64,000 bases of DNA from a virus. Its lineage: Duplodnaviria > Heunggongvirae > Uroviricota > Caudoviricetes. Shown here piece by piece: positions 18,355 to 50,172 of the stretch; position 1 is the stretch's first letter; each line of letters begins with the position of its first letter. The notes beneath the pieces were generated by a model that made no database searches, was not told where the DNA came from, and was given only the letters and a program-made list of their open reading frames with translations. Location of the stretch: positions 26,391-90,390 of the IMG/VR virus record IMGVR_UViG_3300046513_000108. One strand, 5' to 3'. Position numbers and translations under genes: made by a program.

Positions 18355-19869
18355 TTATAGGGAGGGAATAGGACTAGTTTGTGTAAGAGATGGCATACTA
18401 AAATCTGGCATATATATATTCTTAGCTAAAGATGTGAAAGCATCACTAGCACTATCAACCTGATCATCTTTCTGTGTTTTCTGAAGTTTCAAATCAGAAG
18501 AGAACGCTTCAAGCTCTTTGAAAAATTCCTCGTTCCACTCTCCACGGACAACTTTAATGTTGCCAGCCTCTGCCATAGAGCAAAAAGGAAGGAATCTTGT
18601 AAGTTTAGATTTGCCAGAGACAACCGGGGCAGTTTTAGTAGGAACACCATTTTCAGAAAGTACAGTTCTGTATAAAAACACAGCAGATTTACCTGCGGCT
18701 CCGGGGTCAACTGGAATAACAACTGTACATCCATCAACACCATCTTCTTTAGCCACTTCAGCCACTTTTTTCAGCACTTTATCTGTAGTGGCTTGAAACC
18801 TTACCACATCTTCTATATAATATGTACCAAACCTATCCCGGCTCATTTTAACACCGGCAGTCCAGTCAGGGTTATTCGTCTTTGTCTTTTCTTCAGATGC
18901 GAAATCCCAAGCTCTTACTCTTGTTGCTTGTGATGGCGGCAATTCAACCATTTCTACCCAAGACCTGTCAAAGAACATACTTCCTTGCTCTCGTGCTGTC
19001 CAAGAGCCATGCAAATATTTCAGTTGGTTTACATAAGGTTGAGATAAAAGGCTGGATAAATAGCTGGTATTTCTTGGTGGAAGCAGGAATGGATTAGAAA
19101 ACACGTTACACGGAACAAAACGAAAACTCTTTGGCATACATAAACGTTGTTTCTCTTCTGTTGTAAGTGCATCCAACTGAGCTTCAGTCATCCCATGTGC
19201 ATAAATATGACCTTTAGGCTCACCGTACAACTTGAAGCATTCTTCTGGGCTGTCTGCCCACTTAGCTACGTTATCTTCAACCACAAACCATTTAATCTTA
19301 TTCTCGGTGCCGGGTAGTGGTACGCCCGTATCAGGATCAAGAGAATAATCAACCCAACTTTTTAAGAAGGAATTTATATCAGGGTTGCATGTCAAGATTA
19401 GTTGAGGGTGTATTTTCGAGCCTACTGTACGTAGTCGAGATTGCAAGAATAAGATTTGTTTCTCTGTCCACTTATCACCAGCCTCATCCACCATGAAGCG
19501 GGTAAGCTGAGAACCTTGCCAAGAACCTAAGTCATCATCACAAGAAATTGCAGAGAAGGATATTGTTGCCCCGCTAGGAAATTCCCATAATTTTGCTTGA
19601 GTTTTATATGGAATCTTTGTAAAATCTCGGTAGATACTTTTAGACTCATCAATCAATCCTCCGGGACGCTTCAACTCGGGTTCATATCGCCTCAAAATTG
19701 CTGCCCTAAAACTCGGATCATGAATACCATCTAAGTTTTTTGTAAGACAAATGTGGGTCTTTCCGCCTCCTGCGCCGCCTCCGACCAAAATCACATCAGT
19801 GGTTTTGTCCTGTAACACTATCCTTTGCATTTCACTAGCAGGCCCATACACTTTCTTAGGTTTTTTCAT
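18355..19869 (-). CDS. terL: terminase large subunit
   Basis: N-terminal Walker A VILVGGGAGGGKT; 504 aa; sits upstream of the portal gene. Confidence 0.85.
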   Translation of the reverse strand: MKKPKKVYGPASEMQRIVLQDKTTDVILVGGGAGGGKTHICLTKNLDGIHDPSFRAAILRRYEPELKRPGGLIDESKSIYRDFTKIPYKTQAKLWEFPSGATISFSAISCDDDLGSWQGSQLTRFMVDEAGDKWTEKQILFLQSRLRTVGSKIHPQLILTCNPDINSFLKSWVDYSLDPDTGVPLPGTENKIKWFVVEDNVAKWADSPEECFKLYGEPKGHIYAHGMTEAQLDALTTEEKQRLCMPKSFRFVPCNVFSNPFLLPPRNTSYLSSLLSQPYVNQLKYLHGSWTAREQGSMFFDRSWVEMVELPPSQATRVRAWDFASEEKTKTNNPDWTAGVKMSRDRFGTYYIEDVVRFQATTDKVLKKVAEVAKEDGVDGCTVVIPVDPGAAGKSAVFLYRTVLSENGVPTKTAPVVSGKSKLTRFLPFCSMAEAGNIKVVRGEWNEEFFKELEAFSSDLKLQKTQKDDQVDSASDAFTSLAKNIYMPDFSMPSLTQTSPIPSL

Positions 19870-19928
19870 TAATATCCTCCATCAAAGATTCAACTCTTTC
19901 AAGGGGAGCTACCCTGTTCGCCACGCAA

Positions 19929-19956
19929 ACGACAAAAACCGCCTCTAGGACGGTTT
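19929..19956 (-). terminator. hairpin AAACCG-N9-CGGTTT with a 3' U-tract between the tRNA/small-ORF unit and the terminase gene
   Basis: minus strand stem followed by TTTTGTCGTTTG. Confidence 0.3.
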
Positions 19957-20059
19957 CTAAAAATGAAGTCAGAAGCCACGCTAACCTGCTATCTGACATG
20001 AGACTCCAAGAGTGAATCCCCTCACCACAACAATTACGTGTTAAAGTCCACGGTGACTA

Positions 20060-20218
20060 TTAATCCCCAACAGGGACATCTTCCGGTGTAGTGCTGCAAC
20101 CAGAATCTTTGTTTTCTTTCTTAGACCAATCAATTTTGTCCCAATTAGACTTGATTGCTTCACGGTCTTCTGTACGACGATGAGAGCCTTTCCCTGCTTC
20201 TTCGTGATATGTACTCAT
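20060..20218 (-). CDS. small basic protein (52 aa)
   Basis: internal ATG with AAGGAGAA RBS; lies between tRNA-Gly and the terminase gene. Confidence 0.45.
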   Translation of the reverse strand: MSTYHEEAGKGSHRRTEDREAIKSNWDKIDWSKKENKDSGCSTTPEDVPVGD

Positions 20219-20352
20219 AGTTCTCCTTTGTTTGATGCTCCGTGTCAAACTTGACAGATGTATCCGCGAAGATAACACCACAGAGGTTTGCCCTCCGAAG
20301 ACTTCAGGAAACGTCTTTCCATTTCTGTGCTACTGACCTCTAAGGGCGATTT

Positions 20353-20428
20353 TGGAGCGGGCAACAGGAATCGAACCTGCGACGAACAGCTTGGAAGGCT
20401 GACACTCTACCTACTGAGTTATACCCGC
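20353..20428 (-). tRNA. tRNA-Gly (anticodon UCC)
   Basis: hand-folded cloverleaf GCGGGTA…TTCGATT…TGCCCGC-T-CCA; anticodon loop CTTCCAA; CCA is encoded. Confidence 0.85.
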
Positions 20429-20434
20429 GTTGTT

Positions 20435-20509
20435 TGGCTGTCTAGACTGGCATCGAACCAATAACCTAGTGATTAACAGTCACTTGCTCTACCATTGAGC
20501 TACTAGACA
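20435..20509 (-). tRNA. tRNA-Asn (anticodon GUU)
   Basis: cloverleaf with acceptor TGTCTAG/CTAGACA, anticodon loop CTGTTAA, discriminator G, encoded CCA. Confidence 0.85.
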
Positions 20510-20514
20510 ATGTT

Positions 20515-20590
20515 TGGTGCTACTTAGAGGATTCCAACCCCTGACATCTTCATTACAAGTGAAGCGCTCTAGCAACTGAGCTAAAGTAGC
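20515..20590 (-). tRNA. tRNA-Thr (anticodon UGU)
   Basis: acceptor GCTACTT/AAGTAGC, anticodon loop CTTGTAA, T-loop TTGGAAT, encoded CCA. Confidence 0.8.
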
Positions 20591-20591
20591 T

Positions 20592-20676
20592 TGGTGGGCG
20601 AGGAGGGATTCCAACCCTCAATCCTTTCGGCGCGTGATTTTAAGTCACGAGTGTATCGCAGTTCCACCACTCGCCC
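20592..20676 (-). tRNA. tRNA-Leu (anticodon UAA), class II with long variable arm
   Basis: 85 nt; acceptor GGGCGAG/CTCGCCC; anticodon loop CTTAAAA; variable arm forms a stem-loop; encoded CCA. Confidence 0.8.
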
Positions 20677-21150
20677 CTAATTTAATAATCCTCTGGATAG
20701 CTGACTATGGCAATTTGGACAAAGAAATCTTAGATTTTCCTCCCTATCGTCTAACCAATCTTCATTAATATGATCTACATCTAAAGTTAATGGAAAATCG
20801 TGCCACACAGGGATTTGAGAACACTTTTCACATTCGTGTTTTCTACCAATCTCAATTAAACACCTAGTCAATACACTACCTTTCTGTCTTAACCCACAGT
20901 CTCTTTTAATTAAGATTTCACTAAATTTTTTCTTTGAAAATTTCTTACCTTTATTCCACAATTGACCTGTGAAATGTTGTGTATCTAGACCTAGTTTTTT
21001 AATCCTTCTGCTATAGTGACTGTGAGAGCCACCTGTCTCTCTAATTCCTAAGTATCTAAGTACTCCTGCTATTGACTCACTATTCTCTACTGCAATAGTT
21101 AATTCTTCATCAGTTATCTTATTGTATTTTCTTTTCATACATTGAATCAT
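20677..21150 (-). CDS. HNH endonuclease
   Basis: C-x-x-C … DHIN … N … C-x-x-C-H HNH-type motif; start moved to MIQCMKRKY because the first 14 codons of the 171-aa track ORF overlap a tRNA gene. Confidence 0.75.
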   Translation of the reverse strand: MIQCMKRKYNKITDEELTIAVENSESIAGVLRYLGIRETGGSHSHYSRRIKKLGLDTQHFTGQLWNKGKKFSKKKFSEILIKRDCGLRQKGSVLTRCLIEIGRKHECEKCSQIPVWHDFPLTLDVDHINEDWLDDREENLRFLCPNCHSQLSRGLLN

Positions 21151-21158
21151 TTTTATTT

Positions 21159-21243
21159 TGGTAGGCTTACCGAGACTCCAACTCGGACGCATTTCTGCAC
21201 CGGAACCTAAATCCGGCGTGTCTAGCTATTCCACCATAAGCCC
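21159..21243 (-). tRNA. tRNA-Leu (anticodon UAG), class II; paralog of the Leu-UAA tRNA
   Basis: 85 nt; acceptor GGGCTTA/TAAGCCT with a G1-U72 wobble; D-arm nearly identical to the Leu-UAA tRNA (TGGTGGAA…CAC); anticodon stem CCGGA/TCCGG with loop TTTAGGT; variable stem-loop GCA-GAAA-TGC; T-arm CCGAG-TTGGAGT-CTCGG; A73 then CCA. Confidence 0.6.
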
Positions 21244-21368
21244 ATTTATTCTTTCCTGAAGAATCCTCTACAACCTCTTCGTGCTTCCGTAGGAGGGGAC
21301 GTAGCCCGTTTTAGGAGAAGATTCAGGAAAGAAGCCTCTTTGGAAGCTTCAATATGTGTATTGTATAC

Positions 21369-21854
21369 TCAATCTTCTTCTTTGTCAACTATTTGTTCTG
21401 TCATCTGCACATCAATCACAGGTTGATCCCGAAAATCTTCATGCACATTGTCAAAATCTACAATAGGGGTGTCATCCTCTTCTTCCTCTTCTTCACCCTC
21501 TGGTGTAGTAGTTCCCGCACCTACAAGCTTCAGCAACACTACTTCCTTCTCTAGACGGATAATTTCATCCTTGTCTCTTTGATCAACCATTTTTGTGTGT
21601 AGGGTTAGAATAGCTTCAGCCGCCATCCTACGATCCTTGTCAGCAGCGTTTTTGTCTACAGAGATGTGTACAAGAGTCTCCAAAGCTGTTTGTAGATATC
21701 GTCCAGATTGTTTGATTGCCTTGTCTAAGTCATGCCCTTTAGGTTTTAGGAATGTGTTAGCTTTCCTAGTTTTCTTGTACGGGCCTCTTTTTACAACGTT
21801 TGTTGACTCCTCTACAACCACTATTTCTGTGCTTGTATCTTTCTCTTCTTCCAT
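21369..21854 (-). CDS. acidic protein at the head of the packaging operon; possibly the terminase small subunit or a DNA-binding protein
   Basis: ATG at 21854 has a GGAGG RBS and a TTGACA-17-TACTAT promoter; basic N-terminus (KRGPYKKTRKANTFLKPKG) and an acidic E/D-rich C-terminus. Confidence 0.5.
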   Translation of the reverse strand: MEEEKDTSTEIVVVEESTNVVKRGPYKKTRKANTFLKPKGHDLDKAIKQSGRYLQTALETLVHISVDKNAADKDRRMAAEAILTLHTKMVDQRDKDEIIRLEKEVVLLKLVGAGTTTPEGEEEEEEDDTPIVDFDNVHEDFRDQPVIDVQMTEQIVDKEED

Positions 21855-21879
21855 GCTAGAATGCCTCCAAATAAGCTTA

Positions 21880-21908
21880 ATAGTAGCACAAATGTTGTTT
21901 GTTGTCAA
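21880..21908 (-). promoter_or_regulatory. sigma70-like promoter for the minus-strand packaging and structural unit
   Basis: minus strand TTGACA, 17-nt spacer, TACTAT, then GGAGG RBS and ATG. Confidence 0.5.
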
Positions 21909-21978
21909 TTTTCCATATTGACAGAAACTTTTACATGGTGTAAGATAGGTTTTATGTTACAAACAAGGAGGGTAAAGT

Positions 21979-22101
21979 GTGACCGAAGAGTATTTTGATG
22001 TTGACAGTTTTGTAACTAAATATGAATATTTTGAACAGGGTATAGAAGAGTATTCTGTGGATGAGATTAACAACCTAACTGAAGGAGTTGACAATGAGTA
22101 A
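21979..22101 (+). CDS. small acidic protein (40 aa), GTG start
   Basis: AGGAGG RBS 7 nt upstream; stop overlaps the next gene's start (ATGAGTAA); below the ORF-track size cutoff. Confidence 0.3.
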   Translation: MTEEYFDVDSFVTKYEYFEQGIEEYSVDEINNLTEGVDNE

Positions 22102-22330
22102 AGAAATTAAAGAGATGGTAGAGCCGAGTATTGTTGTATTTGGTTTCATGCTGCAAGAGGCTATTCTAGATGGCTGGCGCATCAGTGAGCAACACCCTGT
22201 AAACTTTTTTGGAGGTTTGTATGTGGTGAATGTAGAACGTGGGGAAGATGAAGCTGTTGTAGAAGAAACACCTATTGAATCTGCTCCTACAGAGGCAAAG
22301 AAACAAGGGCGTCCAGCTAGGGCTAAATAA
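22094..22330 (+). CDS. hypothetical protein
   Basis: ATG with GAAGGAG RBS; 78 aa. Confidence 0.55.
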   Translation: MSKEIKEMVEPSIVVFGFMLQEAILDGWRISEQHPVNFFGGLYVVNVERGEDEAVVEETPIESAPTEAKKQGRPARAK

Positions 22331-22527
22331 TGAACGTTAAATTTGAAAATGGCTCTGTCCCTATTCATGAATTGAGAAAGGGTGTTGTTGTTTTGTATAA
22401 TAACCGTTTCTATCACATCAAGTCATTTTGGCAACATGGTACTCAGGGATTTCAAATTGTTCTAGAAGATGATGAAGAATTATTTGAAATACTTCCTCAA
22501 GAAGTAACATGGCTTGGGCCGATGTAA
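22330..22527 (+). CDS. hypothetical protein
   Basis: 65 aa; start overlaps the upstream stop (TAATG). Confidence 0.55.
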   Translation: MNVKFENGSVPIHELRKGVVVLYNNRFYHIKSFWQHGTQGFQIVLEDDEELFEILPQEVTWLGPM

Positions 22528-22535
22528 TTTGACTA

Positions 22536-22572
22536 AAAGGATATCTCAGTGTAATATTGGGATATCCTTTTT
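22536..22572 (+). terminator. rho-independent terminator
   Basis: AAAGGATATC-N15-GATATCCTTT followed by TT; perfect 10-bp stem. Confidence 0.6.
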
Positions 22573-22595
22573 AACATTCTGTGAGGTACTAATTA

Positions 22596-23378
22596 ATGTC
22601 CAGACAAGCAGCACGACATACCCGTAAAAAGAAAATCGAACAAGAACTTCCTCCTGTACACAAAGAGAAGTTTCAGGAAGTTGTTCCCTCACAAACAGTA
22701 GCACAGAAACTAACAGCACAAACAAAAAATCAAGCTATGCAGTTGAAATACCAGCAAGAAGGAAGAAAAGTCATCTTTGCTATTGGTGCAGCAGGTAGTG
22801 GGAAAAGTTTCTTGGCAGCTTACCATGCTGCTGAACAACTTAGAAAGAAACAAGTAGAACAAATCATTCTGCTTCGTCCAAATGTCTCCGCAGGAAAATC
22901 CCTTGGTATGCTACCCGGCACTCTAGAAGAAAAATTAGCAGTTTTCTTCACTCAAACACTCTCTCATCTCTCTTTCTTTATGGGTAAAGGTTTTATGAAA
23001 TATGCTCTGGATAAAGGTATTGTCCGTATGCAATCCATGGAACACCTTCGTGGTCTTAGTATCTCTAATGCCATTGTAATTTGTGAAGAAAGCCAAAATC
23101 TCACAGAAGATGAACTAGAAATGACCCTTTCCCGTATCGGAGATAATTGCCAAATCATCTTCACAGGGGATCAAAAACAAACAGATTTGAAGTTCAACAG
23201 TGGACTCATGAAAACTGTAGATTTGATTGTAAAAACCATCAACGATGAACCTGAATACATGACAGATGAAGATTTGGATGAATTAGAAAGCAATATTGGA
23301 GTGGTGAACTACACCATGCAAGACGTTGTTCGTTCTGGTTTGTGCAAGAGCTTCGTGAAGATGTATCATCACAACTAA
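22596..23378 (+). CDS. phoH: PhoH-like ATPase
   Basis: Walker A GAAGSGKS and the PhoH-family block …QIILLRPNVSAGKSLGMLPGTLEEKL…. Confidence 0.85.
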   Translation: MSRQAARHTRKKKIEQELPPVHKEKFQEVVPSQTVAQKLTAQTKNQAMQLKYQQEGRKVIFAIGAAGSGKSFLAAYHAAEQLRKKQVEQIILLRPNVSAGKSLGMLPGTLEEKLAVFFTQTLSHLSFFMGKGFMKYALDKGIVRMQSMEHLRGLSISNAIVICEESQNLTEDELEMTLSRIGDNCQIIFTGDQKQTDLKFNSGLMKTVDLIVKTINDEPEYMTDEDLDELESNIGVVNYTMQDVVRSGLCKSFVKMYHHN

Positions 23379-24115: not shown

Positions 24116-24177
24116 GTGCTTGCACTTTGTAGGATGTTGTGCTAAAGTAGCTTCATCAAATCATTTTGGAGAAACAA

Positions 24178-25467
24178 ATGGCTAAGGCTATCGTAGCAAA
24201 GGTAACGGCTGTGCAGGAGATTCCGGGTGCAGACAAGATTCATGTGGCTGTTGTTCTTGGTGAAAACTGTATTGTTAGTAAAGATGTTGGTGTTGGGTAT
24301 GTTGGTATCCTGTTCCCTGCTGACACTCAACTGTCTGAAGAATACTGCCGTGAGAACAACCTGTTCCGTCAAGCACTGAACAACAAAGACAACACCAAAA
24401 CTGGCTTCTTTGAAGAGAATCGCCGTGTTCGTGTTCAGCCATTTCTGAAGGTGAAGTCTCAGGCTTATTTCACTTCTCTTGAAAGCCTGTCTTACGTAGG
24501 TAATTACAATGAAGTGAGTGACATTGGATATAGCTTTGACACTGTAAATGGCAAACAAATCTGCCAGAAATACATCTCTAAAGCCACTCGTGAAGCTCTG
24601 GAACGTCAACCGAAGAAAAAGAAACGTCTGATTGATTTGCCATACTTTGAGAAACACGTAGACAGTGCTCAATTTAAGCACAATGCAGCTATGATTCCTG
24701 TAGGTGCTATGCTGTCTTTCACAGCAAAGATTCATGGTACTTCTCATCGTTCTGGCCTGACTAAAGTGGTGCATACACTGCCAAAATGGAAGCAGATTGT
24801 AAATAAAGTTTATCCGTTCTTCAAACAAGAAGAATGGAAGCACATTGTAGGCACTCGTAATGTCATCCTGACAGAAGGTAAAGAAGGCTTCCACGGCTCT
24901 GAGCAATTCCGCTTCGATGTTATGGAAATGCTGAAGCCCTTTATGACTGAGGGTATGACCATTTACGGGGAGATTGCTGGCTATGCGAATGGTAAGCCTA
25001 TTATGGCAACCCACTCTGGCAAATCAACCAAAGACAAAGCTTTCCAGAAGAAATATGGAGAGAACATTGTTTATAAGTATAACTGTGCAGAGCATGAGAA
25101 TTATTTCTTTGTTTATCGCATCACTCAACTGACACAAGACGGGAAGAACATTGATATGTCTCCTGCACAGATTCAACAGTGGTGTGAAGAACGTGGATTG
25201 AATGCCCCTCTGCATGTTGCTGAATCTGAAATTTATGATGGGGATTTGGATAAGCTGCTGGCAAAGGTAGAAGCACTCACTGAACGTCCTGATGTACTTG
25301 GTGCAGACTATCTTGATCCATCTCATCCGGGGGAAGGTATTATTGTTCGTGTAGATACGGGGAAACAAAATCCGTATTTCCTGAAATCGAAGGCTTACTT
25401 CTTCAGGTGCATGGAAGGTCTTGCAGAGGCAGCAGATATGGAAGATTTGGAAGCAATTTCTGAATGA
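24178..25467 (+). CDS. RNA ligase: N-terminal tRNA-binding OB (Trbp111/EMAP-like) domain fused to an Rnl2/Rnl5-type nucleotidyltransferase
   Basis: N-terminus AIVAKVTAVQEIPGADKIHVAVVLGENCIVS resembles the tRNA_bind signature; ligase motif I is KIHGTS (T4 Rnl2 has KIHGTN), motif IV is EGIIVRV, motif V is LKSK. Confidence 0.7.
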   Translation: MAKAIVAKVTAVQEIPGADKIHVAVVLGENCIVSKDVGVGYVGILFPADTQLSEEYCRENNLFRQALNNKDNTKTGFFEENRRVRVQPFLKVKSQAYFTSLESLSYVGNYNEVSDIGYSFDTVNGKQICQKYISKATREALERQPKKKKRLIDLPYFEKHVDSAQFKHNAAMIPVGAMLSFTAKIHGTSHRSGLTKVVHTLPKWKQIVNKVYPFFKQEEWKHIVGTRNVILTEGKEGFHGSEQFRFDVMEMLKPFMTEGMTIYGEIAGYANGKPIMATHSGKSTKDKAFQKKYGENIVYKYNCAEHENYFFVYRITQLTQDGKNIDMSPAQIQQWCEERGLNAPLHVAESEIYDGDLDKLLAKVEALTERPDVLGADYLDPSHPGEGIIVRVDTGKQNPYFLKSKAYFFRCMEGLAEAADMEDLEAISE

Positions 25468-25478
25468 AAGGACTACAA

Positions 25479-25922
25479 ATGAAATGCGTAATTACTGTAG
25501 GTGTATCTGCTTCTGGTAAATCTACTTGGAGTGAGAAACAAGAGGATTTCTATGAAATCAATCGTGACAAACTTCGTTGGGAAGTGACAGGTAAGCTTGG
25601 CTGGAAGGGAGAAAATGCCTACAAGTTCTCTAGTAAAGTTGAGAAGGAAGTGAGTGATATTGCTGATCATCTGCTTGTAGAGTGTGCAAAGCGGGGAGAG
25701 GATGTTATTTTCTCTAACACCAACTTGAACCCAAAGCTTCGTAACAAACTGATTGCAGATTGTGTGTCTATGGGCTACAATGTAGAAATTGTAGAATTTC
25801 CTGTCAGTTTCCAAGAGGCTGTAAGGCGTGACAAAGAGCGTGGAATCTTCTCTGTTGGGGAAGAAGTTATTTACAAACAGTGGGAACAATGGGTAGCATA
25901 TTGGAATGAGAAGGAAGTTTGA
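25479..25922 (+). CDS. polynucleotide 5'-kinase (T4 Pnk kinase-domain homolog, no fused phosphatase)
   Basis: P-loop GVSASGKST; INRD and SNTNLNP blocks are co-linear with the T4 PseT kinase domain; ATGA overlap with the ligase gene. Confidence 0.75.
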   Translation: MKCVITVGVSASGKSTWSEKQEDFYEINRDKLRWEVTGKLGWKGENAYKFSSKVEKEVSDIADHLLVECAKRGEDVIFSNTNLNPKLRNKLIADCVSMGYNVEIVEFPVSFQEAVRRDKERGIFSVGEEVIYKQWEQWVAYWNEKEV

Positions 25923-26167
25923 TGAAGAAACACCCTCTACAAATAGCAAACGAAGAAAGAGCTAAGACAGACCCTTGTAGGCATTGTGGATTCCACAACA
26001 GGGCAGACGGAGGAAAGGGTTTCCACTTATACGAAGCAAAGTGTAAGAGTTGTGGTGGTAGTATGGATCACTCTTATCTGTGGGCACCTTGGGGAATGAC
26101 ATGGGAGCAATTGCAAGAAACCAAAGACAAATGGAACAAGATTATGGAGAAATATAAACGTGAGTAA
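25919..26167 (+). CDS. zinc-ribbon protein
   Basis: CRHC…CKSC cysteine pairs; translationally coupled to both neighbours. Confidence 0.55.
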   Translation: MMKKHPLQIANEERAKTDPCRHCGFHNRADGGKGFHLYEAKCKSCGGSMDHSYLWAPWGMTWEQLQETKDKWNKIMEKYKRE

Positions 26168-26708
26168 TATCTTTTTGACAAGTGATACACATTTTGGTCA
26201 TGTAGGAGTGACAAAGTTTCTTGCTCCTAATGGGGTTGATAAACTTCGCCCTTGGGACACTATCGAAGAAATGGATGAAGCCCTTATTGAGAATTGGAAT
26301 AAAGTTGTACGTCCACAGGACAAGGTGTATCATCTAGGAGATGTTGTAATCAATCGTCGTGCTCTGCCTACTCTGGCACGCCTGAATGGTACAAAGATTC
26401 TGATTAAAGGTAATCATGACGTATTCCGGCTGGAAGAGTACACTCCGTATTTCAAGGATGTACGGGGCAGTGGTGAACTGGCAGGATATGTACTAACACA
26501 CATTCCTATTCATCCACAAAGCTTAGAGCGTTGGAAGGGGAATTTCCATGGGCATTTGCACGCTCATAGTGTTTTGCACACATTCCAAGAGGGAGCTATT
26601 CTTAAAACAAGACATCACCCGCGTTATCTCTGTGTCTCTGTAGAACAAACAAGCTTTACACCTATTAGCTTGGAAGATGCTATCAAAAAATGGGAGAAAC
26701 AACAATGA
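26160..26708 (+). CDS. calcineurin-like metallophosphoesterase (candidate RNA 2',3'-cyclic/3'-phosphatase)
   Basis: MPP motifs SDTHFGH, GDV, GNHD and GHLH. Confidence 0.75.
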   Translation: MSNIFLTSDTHFGHVGVTKFLAPNGVDKLRPWDTIEEMDEALIENWNKVVRPQDKVYHLGDVVINRRALPTLARLNGTKILIKGNHDVFRLEEYTPYFKDVRGSGELAGYVLTHIPIHPQSLERWKGNFHGHLHAHSVLHTFQEGAILKTRHHPRYLCVSVEQTSFTPISLEDAIKKWEKQQ

Positions 26709-27001
26709 AATATTACAAGCGTGATTTTCTGAATAAAGCTGAAGGTATGGCTGCTTTTGAAGCCGATATTACTTGGGATAACGACGATGGGCATGATTAT
26801 GGTATGTCTGCTTCCTTCTGTATTACAGATTGCAGCCGTAAAGTATCACTAGACTTCTCTCCATATGGTGATGAGGAAAATAACAGCTTTTACAAACTAA
26901 CTAAGCTGATTGAAGAACTGTCTGCATTCAAAGAGAAATTTGAAGAAATTCACAAGGCGCGTGCAGAATACAAAGAGGCAAAGGAAAAAGATGAAACCTG
27001 A
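26705..27001 (+). CDS. hypothetical protein
   Basis: GGGAGAAA RBS; 98 aa. Confidence 0.5.
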   Translation: MKYYKRDFLNKAEGMAAFEADITWDNDDGHDYGMSASFCITDCSRKVSLDFSPYGDEENNSFYKLTKLIEELSAFKEKFEEIHKARAEYKEAKEKDET

Positions 27002-27512
27002 AATCTCTCTCTACAGCGGGGGCAACTTCTGCTTTACAGAACCAGATAGCAGCAACTACACTGTAAAGGATATTGCACTGAACCTCTCCAATCTCAGTAG
27101 ATTTACAGGTTCTCTTGAGAAGCCTTACAGCATTGCACAACATTGTGTATATGTCTCTCTGCTTGTTCCAGAGGAATATGCTATGGAAGCTCTTATGCAC
27201 GATGCTGGAGAAGCCTTCCTTGGAGATGTTTCCTCTCCTCTCAAGCAACTGCTTGCAGACTACAAGAAACTGGAACAGAGTGTAGAAGCTTCTATTTTCA
27301 AAAAATATGGCTTGCAGTTTCCCATGCATCCAGAAATCAAGAAAGCTGACATGCGTATGTTTGTGAGCGAGCGAATTGACTTACAGCCTAATTGTTCTGT
27401 GCGAGGATACAACTTTGAGAGAGCACCTTTTAAGGTGGTTCCTTGGGGACACAAGAAAGCTTATGAACAGTTTTTGAAGAGGTTTGATGAACTTGGAGGA
27501 GTGATTAAATGA
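26991..27512 (+). CDS. HD-domain phosphohydrolase (YfbR-like)
   Basis: H…HD…GD pattern (AQHCVYVS…ALMHDAGEAFLGDVSSPLK); AAGGAAAAAG RBS. Confidence 0.65.
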   Translation: MKPEISLYSGGNFCFTEPDSSNYTVKDIALNLSNLSRFTGSLEKPYSIAQHCVYVSLLVPEEYAMEALMHDAGEAFLGDVSSPLKQLLADYKKLEQSVEASIFKKYGLQFPMHPEIKKADMRMFVSERIDLQPNCSVRGYNFERAPFKVVPWGHKKAYEQFLKRFDELGGVIK

Positions 27513-28033: not shown

Positions 28034-28063
28034 GAGGGAACCTTTGTGTTCCCTCTTTCTATT
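28034..28063 (+). terminator. hairpin GAGGGAAC-N6-GTTCCCTC with a U-tract; leader attenuator or terminator of the upstream unit
   Basis: perfect 8-bp stem followed by TTTCTATT; sits inside the ORF-track start of the HNH ORF. Confidence 0.4.
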
Positions 28064-28073
28064 GGAGAATACA

Positions 28074-29273
28074 TTGAATCAAGAGAATTATAGGCCACGT
28101 AAATACGTTTTTGAAGTAGGTCAAATATACCCCACAAATCATTGGGGTGAAGTAGAAGTGCTAGATGTTGTAAACTCAAACAATATCAGAATTAAATTTT
28201 TAAATACAGGTAACACCAAATCTTGTCGTAGCTCAGACCTTTCTGCTGGTAATGTCAGAGATGACAAGCTGTACAAGAAACAAGGCAATCCTTCCTCTAT
28301 CCCCTCTCCAGCTAAAGATAAATCATTCATACATGCTGGCACAGTGTTTCTAACAAACTTATATGGAGAGGTTGTAGTTGTAGAGTATGTCAATGGTAAA
28401 AATATTATTATCAAATTTACCAACACAGGTAACATTCAAACAGTTCAAAAAGATGCTTTAAAGAAGGGGCTTGTTCATGATATCAAAGAACGAAATAGGA
28501 TATCTAAGGAGAAAGAAAAACAAAGAAAGCTTTCCTTAAAATTACAAAAGGAAGAAAAGAAGAAAAACACATTAAGAAAGAGGCAGGAAAAGAAAGAGGC
28601 AAAGAAAGCTGAAGCTGTGCAAAAGAGGGCGGAAAAGAGAAAACTTAAAGATGAGGAACTGCTGTCTGTTGTTGGACTAGAGTTTTCTGATAAGTTAGAA
28701 ATGAAATTTTCTATTGTTTCAAGAGATTTGGAGACAGAACTATGCACCATCCGATATGAAGAATCTGGAAACGAGTATGAATTTACGTTCAAAAATATTG
28801 TTGGTGGGCAGTATGACGTATATGATAGGGGTAGTTCTGACTTTGAAAAGAAGTATAAACAATATTCTAAAACACGCTCTGTGAATTGGTACGAAGAGAA
28901 TAGAGAAAGACTTCTAGAAAAAGCTCTTAAGTACCAAAAGGACAATCCTGATAAAGCAAATCATTACAACCGAATCCGTCGAGGTAAGCGTAAAAATACC
29001 GAAGGAACTCACACACAAGAAGAAGTGATTGAATTGCTAGTACAACAAGATAACAAGTGTGCTTGTTGCAACACTTCATTTTTGACAGTGAAAAAACATC
29101 TTGACCACATTCATCCAATCAATCTTGGTGGCAGCAACTGGATTACTAATCTTCAATGGTTGTGTGACTTCTGCAATCTTGTTAAAAATGATTCCCACCC
29201 TGATGTGTGGTTAGAATATAGTCAGTCTGAGGAATTCAAAGAGAGGCGCATGAAAAGACTCTTGACAGTATAA
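28074..29273 (+). CDS. HNH homing-endonuclease-like protein with duplicated N-terminal module
   Basis: C-terminal CACCN…HLDHIHPINLGG…NLQWLCDFCN HNH motif; two N-terminal repeats (YGEVxV…I(R/I)IKF(L/T)NTGN); Lys/Glu-rich linker; TTG start with GGAG RBS chosen because the upstream hairpin overlaps the track start. Confidence 0.65.
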   Translation: MNQENYRPRKYVFEVGQIYPTNHWGEVEVLDVVNSNNIRIKFLNTGNTKSCRSSDLSAGNVRDDKLYKKQGNPSSIPSPAKDKSFIHAGTVFLTNLYGEVVVVEYVNGKNIIIKFTNTGNIQTVQKDALKKGLVHDIKERNRISKEKEKQRKLSLKLQKEEKKKNTLRKRQEKKEAKKAEAVQKRAEKRKLKDEELLSVVGLEFSDKLEMKFSIVSRDLETELCTIRYEESGNEYEFTFKNIVGGQYDVYDRGSSDFEKKYKQYSKTRSVNWYEENRERLLEKALKYQKDNPDKANHYNRIRRGKRKNTEGTHTQEEVIELLVQQDNKCACCNTSFLTVKKHLDHIHPINLGGSNWITNLQWLCDFCNLVKNDSHPDVWLEYSQSEEFKERRMKRLLTV

Positions 29274-29320: not shown

Positions 29321-29980
29321 ATGAACATCATTGGGTTGTGCCGTGTTTCCACAGAGGAACAAGGGGAGAGCAGGAACGGGTTAGAGGCCCAACGAAAAGA
29401 GATTGAAGTATGGGCCTCTCAGAACGGATATACAATTGTCTCCATGATTGAAGAAATCACTTCTGGCTCTCTCTCTGTGCAAGATAGACCTGTATTGCAG
29501 TCTGCCCTATCTCTTGCCCGTAAGATGAAATGCAAGATTGTAGTGTCTAAAGTGGACAGGATTAGTAGGGATGCCGCCGTTATTCACAACCTGATGCAGA
29601 AGAAAAAGGTTGTAATTTCTGTTGCGCTCGGAGAACAAGCTGACAGCTTCGTAGAGCATATTTATGCAGGGCTTGCTGAAAAAGAAAGGAAAATGATTGG
29701 AGAGAGGACTAAGGCAGGGTTAGCTGCTGCCAAAGCTCGTGGTGTAGTTTTAGGTAATCGCACCAATCTCCCAGAAGCTCGTAACATTGCTGTAAAAAAT
29801 ATCAAAGCAAAAGCTGATAGGTTTGCTGACAAGCTTCGCCCCACTATCGAACGTATGGTGAGGGACAAAATGAGCTTCAAAGCGATAGCTTCGGAGTTGA
29901 ATGCAGGAGGGACTACGACAGCTAGAGGCGGTTTGTGGTATTCTCAGACGGTTATTAATTTAGTATCCCGCTGGAAATAA
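29321..29980 (+). CDS. small serine recombinase (resolvase/invertase family)
   Basis: N-terminal catalytic motif GLCRVSTEEQ (Ser-10); about 140-aa catalytic domain plus a C-terminal HTH. Confidence 0.85.
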   Translation: MNIIGLCRVSTEEQGESRNGLEAQRKEIEVWASQNGYTIVSMIEEITSGSLSVQDRPVLQSALSLARKMKCKIVVSKVDRISRDAAVIHNLMQKKKVVISVALGEQADSFVEHIYAGLAEKERKMIGERTKAGLAAAKARGVVLGNRTNLPEARNIAVKNIKAKADRFADKLRPTIERMVRDKMSFKAIASELNAGGTTTARGGLWYSQTVINLVSRWK

Positions 29981-47951: not shown

Positions 47952-49955
47952 TTAAAATTTAACGTTATACAACTTTTGATTATTCACTTTCACTACAACA
48001 CTATCACCACGAGCAGACGTAAAACCCAATCCGCTAATCTGTTTCTCAGAAGGCTGGCACATAGTTTTCTGCCCTAACAATTCAAATACTTTACGATGCT
48101 TCTCCAAGTCGCCCTTCAGGAATTCATTGTAAATGCCCCGCGTTGGAACAGGATTTTTACAACCTTCCAGAGCAAAGAATACGTGTTTGCTGCCAATTTC
48201 CTTACCATTCCAGTGATTCGGAGACAGCATCATGGTGTTGACACGTACAAACTTTTCAGTTTCAATGTTCCATTTCTCTTGGCTGAATGCACCACCAACA
48301 ACACCTTGAGTTGGTTTGATGTCAACCACTTTACCACCCTTTACAGTGATAGTCAAAGCATGTTTGTTGTTTCCACTGCGCGGAGAGGTGGGAGTGCTAT
48401 ACTGATGCACAATACCATCCGACTCCACTTCAAGCGTAAAGCCGGGATTGACAGTAGTACGTTGATTGTAATTGTTTACAGTGACAATGTATTGCCCGTC
48501 CATCGGACGGCTCCACACAACGTTCTCCACAGGCTCTGTATCGCTATGCGGGCCATAAGCATTCATGTCCACATCCAGCATACCAGTGTTCTTGCTACGC
48601 ACGCCTTTGTTACCAAAGTAGATTTGATAGCCATCAGGTTCTTTGATATACAAATCCAAATCGTCTTTGTTGTACCATGCCAGAGACACACGGAATTTTG
48701 CATCCGTAATACCGCCCTGAGCCTTCACACGTTCTTTGATACTATCTGTCACATTGCCGTCATAGCTCCAAGCAAAATTATTATCCCATTTGAACAGAGG
48801 CTCCACTTCCTCATGCACAGGAGCCGTGATGCTGACAAAATTAGCTTGATGCTGATTTTTCACATGAACATCAATACTCTTAGCACCGGGAACAACGTTC
48901 TTCAGGAAGTCATCTACATTAATTTCTTGAGCTTTGCTTTCTTTCACTTCAACAGGTGCAACAGCATCAGCCAGAACGTTAGCCACGCCGCCCTTCAGCT
49001 TACCACGAACATTGTTGTCCACGAAGAGGATGTCATTGACAGAAACATCTTCCAGCGTGGCATGTCGCCGTTCCAGAGCAGGCTCCAGACCCAGAGAATC
49101 GATAGTTTTCATTGCATCATCAACCATTTTCTGAGTGATGAGAGCATTAGGGCGCTTGTAGTTGGTAGGAGCTACTTTCTGTTCAAACGATTTTACCGCC
49201 CCTTCGATGTCTACACCAGCAGACAGATCAACCAGAAGGGTGCCAATGGCGGTGTTGCGAAAGCGGGACAGGGCCATGTTGCCAGCATTCTGCCAAATAT
49301 AATTATTCTTTTCTTGTGCGCTCAGTTTGTTGTATTCTTGCTGTGCTTTAGAGAAAGAAGTCACAGAAGCAAGGAAATCATTTCCTTTGTAAAGATTGTT
49401 CTGATTGGTCAGGTCGATGACAGTAGCAAATGCTTCTGGAGTGAGTTCATCCAAGCCACGTTTAAAGACGCTCACAGACGTATTGTATTCTCCTACGACA
49501 GAGCCAACTTCTTTAGTGTAATGCTTGTTCGCAATCTGTCCGTGGAAATGGTTCCAGCGCTTCGTAACACCGTCTTTCAGTTCTACAGTGGATTCTGCAC
49601 CGTATTGCTTTTCAGACGCACGGAAGAGAGATTTAATAGGCGCAGCACTTACAATAATAGACAGTGCTTTCGCTACAATATCATACTCACTGCCAACGTT
49701 CACTGTGTCCCATACGGTTTGCATCTTACCATTCACAACAGCAACAACATTGCCAATATTACGAATGAAATTTTTGCAGCAAGAGCAATCGTGCTCAGTG
49801 CGCTCACGGTAGATTGGGTTGGTGCCTTCAGGGAATGCAGCCAGATAGGCAGCAAAGAGGTCGTCCCCGGATACGTCCACAACGAACAGTTCGTGTTTAG
49901 ACATTTCAGAGAATTGCTTGTGTACAGCTTGAGAAAACGGCTTAAAGTCAGACAT
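47952..49955 (-). CDS. large early hypothetical protein (667 aa)
   Basis: long ORF with no stops, packed against its neighbours; no NTP-binding motif recognised. Confidence 0.7.
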   Translation of the reverse strand: MSDFKPFSQAVHKQFSEMSKHELFVVDVSGDDLFAAYLAAFPEGTNPIYRERTEHDCSCCKNFIRNIGNVVAVVNGKMQTVWDTVNVGSEYDIVAKALSIIVSAAPIKSLFRASEKQYGAESTVELKDGVTKRWNHFHGQIANKHYTKEVGSVVGEYNTSVSVFKRGLDELTPEAFATVIDLTNQNNLYKGNDFLASVTSFSKAQQEYNKLSAQEKNNYIWQNAGNMALSRFRNTAIGTLLVDLSAGVDIEGAVKSFEQKVAPTNYKRPNALITQKMVDDAMKTIDSLGLEPALERRHATLEDVSVNDILFVDNNVRGKLKGGVANVLADAVAPVEVKESKAQEINVDDFLKNVVPGAKSIDVHVKNQHQANFVSITAPVHEEVEPLFKWDNNFAWSYDGNVTDSIKERVKAQGGITDAKFRVSLAWYNKDDLDLYIKEPDGYQIYFGNKGVRSKNTGMLDVDMNAYGPHSDTEPVENVVWSRPMDGQYIVTVNNYNQRTTVNPGFTLEVESDGIVHQYSTPTSPRSGNNKHALTITVKGGKVVDIKPTQGVVGGAFSQEKWNIETEKFVRVNTMMLSPNHWNGKEIGSKHVFFALEGCKNPVPTRGIYNEFLKGDLEKHRKVFELLGQKTMCQPSEKQISGLGFTSARGDSVVVKVNNQKLYNVKF

Positions 49956-50016
49956 TGTATAGCTCCTGTTTTAGAGGGATTGTTTTACTTCGTAAATTGT
50001 TACAGTGAGATGAATT

Positions 50017-50172
50017 CTACTCTGTTTTTGCTTTGTGTGCAAGGAATTCTTTTGCTGCCTCTAGCTGTTGTTGCCAAGCAGCAGTAGACTGCCAAGAAGA
50101 AATGAAAGCATTGTCGAGAGCTTTAACAAGTTCTTCAAGATGATATTTATACATCCATTCAGTTTTATTCAT
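50017..50172 (-). CDS. small protein (51 aa)
   Basis: coupled to the upstream stop. Confidence 0.3.
   Translation of the reverse strand: MNKTEWMYKYHLEELVKALDNAFISSWQSTAAWQQQLEAAKEFLAHKAKTE

Follow-up and report, generated by a model that had tools for sequence, protein, structure and literature searches.

Homing endonucleases are established residents of phage tRNA clusters, as described for SegB of phage T4 (PMC2330249). SegB homologues are statistically associated with tRNAs (PMC13096335), and HNH genes have been found in the tRNA arrays of mycobacteriophages and other viruses (PMC5966550, PMC6409571). In T4 and T6, SegB promotes the inheritance of neighbouring tRNA genes, and both SegB and the F-Tfl enzymes of phage T5 are proposed to be expressed at a low level through processing of the tRNA-operon transcript (PMC2330249). 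Endonuclease open reading frames (ORFs) inside tRNA clusters have been suggested to generate diversity of the tRNA repertoire (via PMC2330249, PMC5966550, PMC6409571). Here we describe an HNH endonuclease gene that lies inside a tRNA array in a 64,000-nucleotide stretch of a Caudoviricetes virus (IMG/VR record IMGVR_UViG_3300046513_000108, positions 26,391 to 90,390; hereafter the window). The region is very probably a phage tRNA operon that was invaded by a free-standing HNH homing-endonuclease gene, with homing near tRNA-Leu during co-infection as part of this reading.

In the window ARAGORN detected exactly five tRNA genes, which all lie on the minus strand; we scored them with the Rfam tRNA model RF00005 (gathering score 29 bits). 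In the direction of transcription these are tRNA-Leu(UAG) (21159-21243; 85 nt, class II; 46.6 bits), tRNA-Leu(UAA) (20592-20676; 85 nt, class II, with A73; 48.7 bits), tRNA-Thr(UGU) (20515-20590; 76 nt; 66.3 bits), tRNA-Asn(GUU) (20435-20509; 75 nt; 67.0 bits) and tRNA-Gly(UCC) (20353-20428; 76 nt; 65.3 bits), and each of the five encodes its CCA end. The spacers within the block of four, Gly-UCC to Leu-UAA, are 6, 5 and 1 nt long, the Thr gene following 1 nt after Leu-UAA. All five genes lie at the coordinates given by an earlier sequence-only reading of the window, which had described four of them at 1-6 nt spacing. The same reading had placed the HNH gene beside the cluster; the gene lies inside it, between the two Leu genes. 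The complete minus-strand order is a sigma-70-like promoter candidate, Leu-UAG, an 8-nt A-rich spacer, HNH, Leu-UAA, Thr, Asn, Gly, a small ORF and TerL, the terminase large subunit. The HNH gene fills the gap between the Leu genes exactly: the CCA of Leu-UAG is followed by AAATAAAA, the ORF from ATG to TAG, and base 1 of Leu-UAA, which the TAG stop codon (20679-20677) abuts.

The fifth tRNA, Leu-UAG, had been proposed from the letters alone and is confirmed here by the ARAGORN call and by a match to RF00005 positions 1-71 well above the gathering score, with cloverleaf and anticodon. Its G1-U72 pair, A73, variable stem-loop and encoded CCA can be read directly from the sequence, as had been stated. 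The D-arms of the two Leu genes had been called almost identical; this holds for the stem, which is common to both, but was overstated for the loops, which differ at 5/11 positions. All five tRNAs are genuine. Searches of 19800-22200 with other Rfam families revealed nothing credible, and no tandem tRNA duplication was visible among the ARAGORN calls within the window.

The annotated ORF (20677-21192, 171 aa) covers the 3' 34 nt of Leu-UAG, and the sequence-only reading had noted that it would be translated through the tRNA and had looked for a later start. The opposite view takes ATG 21192 as the genuine start and Leu-UAG as a pseudogene or a cloverleaf arisen by chance. In its favour, this codon gives the longest ORF; we consider this view extremely unlikely. 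The tRNA has a perfect acceptor stem, A73 and CCA in addition to its score, a Leu-UAG gene sits in the same position in the relative L011 with neither an HNH gene nor an ORF over it, and none of the 62 aligned homologues reaches the 28 residues that precede the conserved Asp when translation begins at ATG 21192. A Shine-Dalgarno sequence is absent before ATG 21192 and also before the two other in-frame candidates, ATG 21150, which lies 8 nt past the CCA of Leu-UAG, and ATG 21138; about 60 % of the confident genes of the phage are preceded by one. By these comparisons the start at 21192 is evidently wrong and the ORF over-extended through Leu-UAG. An ORF caller without prior tRNA masking absorbed a tRNA that looks functional and lengthened a nuclease by 18 spurious residues. 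The same annotation error was found in several longer database homologues, whose N-termini are translated 3' halves of tRNAs.

The sequence-only reading had moved the start downstream of 21192, which stands, and had chosen ATG 21150 (157 aa), for which the homologues gave less support than for ATG 21138 (153 aa). Most of the 284 HNH homologues are 150-156 aa long, and the JGI gene call of a 100 % identical protein has 153 aa, corresponding to ATG 21138. In the 62-sequence alignment, mostly 8-9 residues precede the conserved Asp, compared with 10 for ATG 21138 and 14 for ATG 21150. Position 3 of the PHROG 10822 profile aligns with residue 21 of the long ORF, approximately at Met19. ATG 21138 is therefore most likely the start of the gene (20677-21138, minus strand), with ATG 21150 as a less probable alternative.

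Sequence searches with the HNH protein gave matches to HNH families in Pfam (PF01844; 24.2 bits, cut-off 21.4) and PHROG (10822; 2.7e-52), no match to a GIY-YIG domain in either and no match in NCBIfam. The catalytic and zinc-binding residues D122, H123, N135 and H144 and C103, C106, C140 and C143 are invariant in the 62 sequences. An AlphaFold model (pLDDT 88) displayed an N-terminal module of three helices followed by a C-terminal HNH domain. From the invariant residues and this confident model the nuclease is predicted to be intact. Foldseek revealed no significant full-length structural relative (best E-value 0.03); the weak structural and sequence matches were McrA, I-HmuI and Gme-HNH. 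These beta-beta-alpha-metal proteins (PF01844) resemble the C-terminal half, with its HNH motif and four zinc-binding cysteines, but not the complete protein, as the N-terminal module shows a weak helix-turn-helix likeness and has no solved counterpart in the Foldseek search.

We then compared the locus with that of uncultured relatives found via TerL, which keep the succession of a 161-aa ORF, tRNA array, small ORF and TerL. In L011 (74 % TerL identity) Leu-UAG and Leu-UAA are 7 nt apart (CCA|AAAATAA|Leu-UAA) and no HNH gene is present; L251 (TerL 84 %), L008, L009 and L255 likewise lack it. In contrast, L253 (TerL 81 %) carries a 71 % identical HNH between a Leu-UAG-like tRNA and a Leu-UAA-Thr pair, in the order seen in the window. 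The HNH carriers at this locus are the window, L002 and L253, and the gene is thus present sporadically and with clean boundaries, as is expected of a homing gene. Among related phages the gene is an optional part of the locus, and its composition is foreign, with 33 % G+C compared with 41 % in the genome and the surroundings. The Leu-UAG-like tRNA of L253 (3421-3501) was missed by ARAGORN and reached 35.6 bits with Rfam, so that tRNA counts based on ARAGORN only are lower bounds.

HNH proteins next to terminase genes can be packaging factors, as is the case for the HK97 gp74 type, which assists cos cleavage. The window HNH is likewise a small HNH protein encoded near terminase genes: its gene heads the structural module, shares the orientation of TerL and lies about 800 nt upstream of it, and a link between the HNH and the terminase had been implied by the sequence-only reading. 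A packaging accessory with tRNAs as incidental neighbours is nevertheless very unlikely. The five relatives without the HNH gene have 74-84 % identical TerL proteins and the same locus layout, the HNH family accompanies tRNA arrays in unrelated phages that vary much in size, and the gene is found in only 10/260 FelixO1-like genomes that otherwise share its site. In this respect the window HNH differs from the HK97 gp74 type, since its presence follows tRNA arrays and not the terminase. The pattern as a whole bears the signature of a homing gene, and we regard the HNH as a free-standing homing-type endonuclease gene and, because gene presence does not track the terminase, not as a packaging HNH.

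To describe the habit of the family, we surveyed 80 IMG/VR loci (L018-L097) with HNH homologues of 38-100 % identity. A tRNA was found within 100 nt of the HNH gene in 69/80 loci and within 1 kb in all 80, and 747 of the 760 tRNAs lay on the HNH strand. Leu accounted for 52 % of the immediately flanking tRNAs and for 17 % of the others (Fisher p = 1.6e-17). The HNH stop codon was located at most 2 nt from the next tRNA, or inside it, in 37/71 loci, and the downstream tRNA, where it lay within 30 nt, was Leu in 32/47 cases. Cultured examples with the same junction are Pseudomonas phage PPSC2, Citrobacter phage Michonne and Vibrio phage D69. Comparison of Michonne with Shigella phage Sf18 revealed a clean insertion of approximately 467 bp directly 5' of tRNA-Leu(UAG), with a 7-nt repeat at its bounds and near-identical flanks; the FelixO1-like genomes counted above are those sharing the Michonne tRNA segment. 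This subfamily is confined almost wholly to phage tRNA arrays, is co-oriented with the tRNAs and ends at the 5' edge of the next tRNA, mostly Leu; the tRNA habit is limited to a subfamily of the HNH homologues. A tRNA-Leu 5'-junction habit of an HNH family was not found described in the literature, of which our coverage was incomplete. In many of the loci the HNH ORF ends exactly 10 nt into the called downstream tRNA; its stop codon would then be formed from tRNA positions 8-10.

Like T4/T6 SegB, the window HNH is encoded by a free-standing gene that sits within a phage tRNA operon and is missing from close relatives. SegB, however, has a GIY-YIG fold, so that the resemblance is one of genomic lifestyle and not of homology. 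For SegB homologues no isotype preference was reported (PMC13096335), whereas the family of the window HNH shows a strong association with tRNA-Leu and with the 5' edge of the tRNA that follows. The target of SegB includes the T-arm motif GGTTCRANTCC. The T5 F-Tfl and mycobacteriophage HNH genes are, like the window HNH, endonuclease ORFs inside phage tRNA clusters; tblastn against 50,697 phage genomes detected no T5 or mycobacteriophage match at E <= 1e-10, hence these enzymes do not appear to be close relatives of the subfamily. The element would resemble known tRNA-cluster homing endonucleases in its working, and an ORF start mis-called over a tRNA by the side of a mobile nuclease is ordinary. 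The few homing endonucleases listed so far from phage tRNA clusters are joined here by a well-delimited HNH subfamily with an unusually strict junction rule.

The genomic pattern suggests how such a gene may be expressed and spread. It would be co-transcribed with the tRNAs from the sigma-70-like promoter candidate, and RNase P together with 3'-end processing of the flanking tRNAs would free the HNH mRNA. This mRNA would have an A-rich leader of 8-20 nt and would probably be translated at a low level because a Shine-Dalgarno sequence is lacking, most likely from ATG 21138. In a co-infected cell the nuclease may cut HNH-free arrays of related phages near a tRNA-Leu gene, and recombinational repair would then copy the HNH gene plus neighbouring tRNAs.

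Copying of the HNH gene together with neighbouring tRNAs would explain the mosaic tRNA arrays of this phage group. The Leu-UAA and Thr genes of the window are 80 % and 82 % identical to a pair in Klebsiella Jiaodavirus, which has the same 1-nt spacer, whereas the corresponding genes of its own relatives are only 54-74 % identical; compared as a unit, the Leu-UAA and Thr pair matches the Jiaodavirus one at 82-85 % identity. The Asn-GUU gene is 100 % identical to the Asn gene of the relative L007. By these comparisons the arrays are mosaic. Apart from the tRNA pair, no close DNA relatives were detected among the 50,697 phage genomes. The TerL homologues were all located on uncultured contigs, one of them mislabelled as an archaeal metagenome-assembled genome (MAG).

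Several observations weigh against an operon invaded by a homing gene, or against parts of this reading. The window and its nearest relative, L002 (IMGVR_UViG_3300048090_000069), share, within 19000-23250, a 4.2-kb block of 100 % identity with flanks of 55-83 %. It spans the 5' half of TerL, the tRNA/HNH array and PhoH, and a second near-identical block lies at 24500-27100. The block at the array is far wider than the element and is not usable as a co-conversion tract; ordinary mosaicism fits it equally well. None of the candidate starts has a ribosome-binding site, so that both the choice of start and efficient translation are tentative, and the N-termini of the homologues used for comparison are themselves gene predictions. 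Furthermore, a 37 % identical homologue in Staphylococcus phage phiSA12 is not located near tRNAs. The comparison with L002 also provides an example of sharp mosaicism between two co-occurring phages.

A variant compatible with homing is that the nuclease has been largely domesticated and now amplifies or reshuffles the tRNA locus under tRNA-cleaving host defences, like SegB of T6. Escape from Septu has been traced to a segmental amplification of a tRNA gene that SegB drives (PMC13096335). In the window, RNA-ligase-like and polynucleotide-kinase-like genes 3-5 kb away are compatible with a phage facing tRNA damage, and the insertion is old enough to be common to a lineage at 81 % TerL identity, in which the HNH, 71 % identical, is still intact. 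We consider domestication unlikely, as the array shows no tandem tRNA duplication, and the sporadic distribution is the expectation for a purely selfish element. A targeting of Thr and Asn tRNAs by PARIS was dropped from consideration, as these terms are absent from PMC11464382. It is now recognised that phages use their tRNAs to counter defences that cleave tRNAs. Since phage tRNAs have this role and SegB remodels such loci, elements like the window HNH are likely drivers of rapid tRNA-array turnover in this phage group.

The tRNAs of the array differ in the pair joining the D-loop and the T-loop, which is G19:C56 in nearly all tRNAs. Analysis of the T-loops showed UUGGAAU in Thr and Leu-UAA and UUGGAGU in Leu-UAG, and each of these three G56 T-loops is accompanied by a D-loop with C19, whereas Asn and Gly have the canonical pair. 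The sequence-only reading had noted the unusual TTGGA(A/G)T T-loop of Thr and both Leu tRNAs, which is real but also occurs in other phages and in cells and is thus not specific to this phage; the paired C19 in each of them was absent from it. At these two positions the related Leu-UAA and Thr genes of phage Mineola have G19 and C56, and the Jiaodavirus pair described above has the canonical G19:C56 as well. We read C19:G56 as a structurally compensated Watson-Crick exchange that would preserve the tRNA fold. Such a class of tRNAs was not found described in the literature, again within incomplete coverage. Among the features of the locus, this elbow swap most deserves further study.

Among 749 tRNAs with a 7-nt T-loop in the HNH-linked arrays, position 56 was C in 733, U in 11 and G in 4. 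Three of the four G56 tRNAs are those of the window, and the other 79 arrays contained one G56, without C19, among 744 tRNAs. An unbiased scan of IMG/VR by the C19 D-arm only revealed 15 real tRNAs, 14 of them with G56; the exception turned out to be G18-G19, so that 14/14 C19 tRNAs have G56. Swapped tRNA-Leu genes were found on approximately 20 other viral contigs, usually with one Leu gene swapped per phage, and a metagenome collection contained at least 92 unique swapped tRNA-Leu sequences. Some of the latter stand alone next to genes for ParA, FolD and topoisomerase I, and thus on cellular chromosomes. A Fibrobacter-like MAG (contigs L233, L243, L249) has a swapped, apparently native cellular Thr-UGU in a Thr-Tyr-Gly-Thr cluster, which we take to be the chromosomal thrU-tyrU-glyT-thrT arrangement. 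The swapped pattern with a common class-I D-arm was detected in 7 stretches in IMG/VR and in 23 stretches in 185,579 species genomes, with 8 real tRNAs. Canonical versions of the same patterns comprise at least 120 stretches, so that swapped genes are a minority. A highly conserved tertiary pair is thus exchangeable in nature, repeatedly, and these tRNAs provide a natural test set for elbow-reading factors.

We consider it about evenly balanced whether the C19:G56 pair is a neutral or host-type architecture, acquired by descent or exchange and functionally unconnected with the HNH gene; this is the most likely single explanation. It is consistent with the number of swapped tRNA-Leu genes in metagenomes, with the lone genes in cellular chromosomes and with the swapped Thr-UGU in the chromosomal-type cluster of the Fibrobacter-like MAG. 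The tRNA-Leu genes of Michonne, with HNH, and Sf18, without it, are identical, L253 combines an HNH gene with canonical elbows, and 79/80 HNH loci have canonical flanking tRNAs only. Because L253 carries the HNH with canonical elbows, the swap is younger than the insertion. A neutral architecture fits less well with the background of G56 in the other HNH-linked arrays, given above, and with three non-paralogous tRNAs swapped in one small array, in which the two Leu genes are at most 62 % identical.

It fits less well, too, with the origin and the neighbourhood of the swapped Leu genes. These form no clade: with the two elbow columns masked, 17/22 were closest to a canonical gene, although tRNAs carry little phylogenetic signal. 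As a control for the association with the HNH family we used canonical Leu genes with the same D-arm, among the matches listed. An HNH-family ORF was located within 600 nt on viral contigs in 6/22 swapped and 2/118 listed canonical Leu genes (p = 2e-4), and in 4/20 swapped genes compared with the same 2/118 listed when the window lineage was excluded (p = 0.004). In an independent metagenome sample the number was 10/92 swapped genes, compared with the viral-set control of 2/118 listed (p = 0.006). Swapped Leu genes thus adjoin this HNH family approximately 7-15 times more often than canonical ones, in comparisons with small numbers and with lineages that are not independent.

This excess would be expected if the elbow swap were a footprint of conflict between tRNA genes and nucleases that target them, which we nonetheless regard as quite unlikely. 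A change of C56 to G in the T-loop DNA would alter recognition by a homing endonuclease, and the matching change of G19 to C would rescue the tRNA at the RNA level; in a variant, the swap may evade an RNA-level factor that reads the tRNA elbow. Conflict of this kind would explain three unrelated swapped tRNAs by an HNH gene, a repeated origin of the swap and the 7-15 times higher frequency beside HNH. The recognition of GGTTCRANTCC by SegB, a T-arm DNA that the C56G change disrupts, is a suggestive precedent (PMC2330249).

Other accounts of the swap were considered as well. A general self-immunity to the resident HNH is weakened by the Michonne and Sf18 tRNA-Leu genes, which are identical with and without HNH, and by the canonical elbows of L253 and of 79/80 HNH loci. 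For a joint import of the three swapped tRNAs from a fully swapped donor phage no such donor was found. A single cassette in which HNH and swapped Leu hitch-hike together is unsupported, given the closeness of 17/22 swapped Leu genes to canonical ones.

Further deviations of the elbow were observed in other arrays. Nearly all of the 11 U56 tRNAs from the 80 HNH loci have GA for GG in the D-loop, which we read as A19:U56, and the 19:56 pair in phage tRNAs thus appears to covary through transitions as well. The related large phages L103 (IMGVR_UViG_3300037993_001242) and L106 (IMGVR_UViG_3300017938_000007) have arrays of more than 20 tRNAs with many altered elbows, comprising C19:G56 in Arg-CCU, Arg-UCU, Ser-UGA and Met and a U19:A56-like pair in Arg-GCG and Arg-CCG; in most of their remaining tRNAs the T-loop is of the A54 type (ATCGAAG). 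Elbows that deviate from the canonical pair cluster by genome. The metagenome contigs L431, L440 and L482 are those on which lone swapped Leu-CAA genes lie beside the ParA, FolD and topoisomerase I genes, and in L431 a LAGLIDADG-looking ORF without Pfam match directly adjoins the swapped tRNA. Among the relatives of the window, L008 (5221-5306), L253 (4141-4226) and L013 (5029-5120) encode tRNA-Thr(UGU) of 86-92 nt whose long variable arm is atypical of Thr tRNAs. That of L008 has the T-loop UUAAAAU and a D-loop with ...GUGUCCGA, possibly forming U19:A56.

The features flanking the array are all encoded on the minus strand. The sigma-70-like promoter candidate (21360-21388; TTGACA-17 nt-TACAAT) has 11/12 consensus matches and was the joint best in a scan of 19800-22600; its putative function derives from the consensus match only. 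It lies approximately 110 nt upstream of Leu-UAG and overlaps the end of the upstream 161-aa ORF (21369-21854), which is conserved at this position in relatives and has no family match. Between the array and TerL, a small ORF of 52 aa (20060-20218) with a strong Shine-Dalgarno sequence (AAGGAG) is kept in relatives and has no family match either. TerL (18355-19869, 504 aa; PHROG 979 at 1e-141, Pfam Terminase_6C) is the downstream neighbour of the array and serves as a locus marker outside the element. Several TerL homologues (P0210, P0213, P0217, P0226, P0229, P0235) are 770-840 aa long and contain inteins or LAGLIDADG homing-endonuclease domains, and in L250 an ORF with an AP2 domain (537-1250) is located between the small ORF and TerL. 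Around the packaging genes of this phage group, selfish nuclease elements are abundant.

On the plus strand, at 3-5 kb from the tRNA array, the window encodes an RNA-ligase-like protein (24166-25467; Pfam RNA_ligase), directly followed by an AAA_33 / polynucleotide-kinase-like protein (25464-25922) with weak matches to bacterial Pnkp. The pair recalls the Pnk and Rnl1 tRNA-repair pair of T4 and adjoins PhoH and a ClpP-like protease. The window also encodes another HNH protein, larger at 409 aa (28044-29273, plus strand), which has an HNH_5 domain and a weak IscB-like match in its HNH region, and is followed by a serine recombinase/resolvase (29321-29980, plus strand). Finally, two ORFs of approximately 665 aa each, at 47952-49955 on the minus strand and 48096-50087 on the plus strand, overlap almost completely, and at most one of them is likely to be real.

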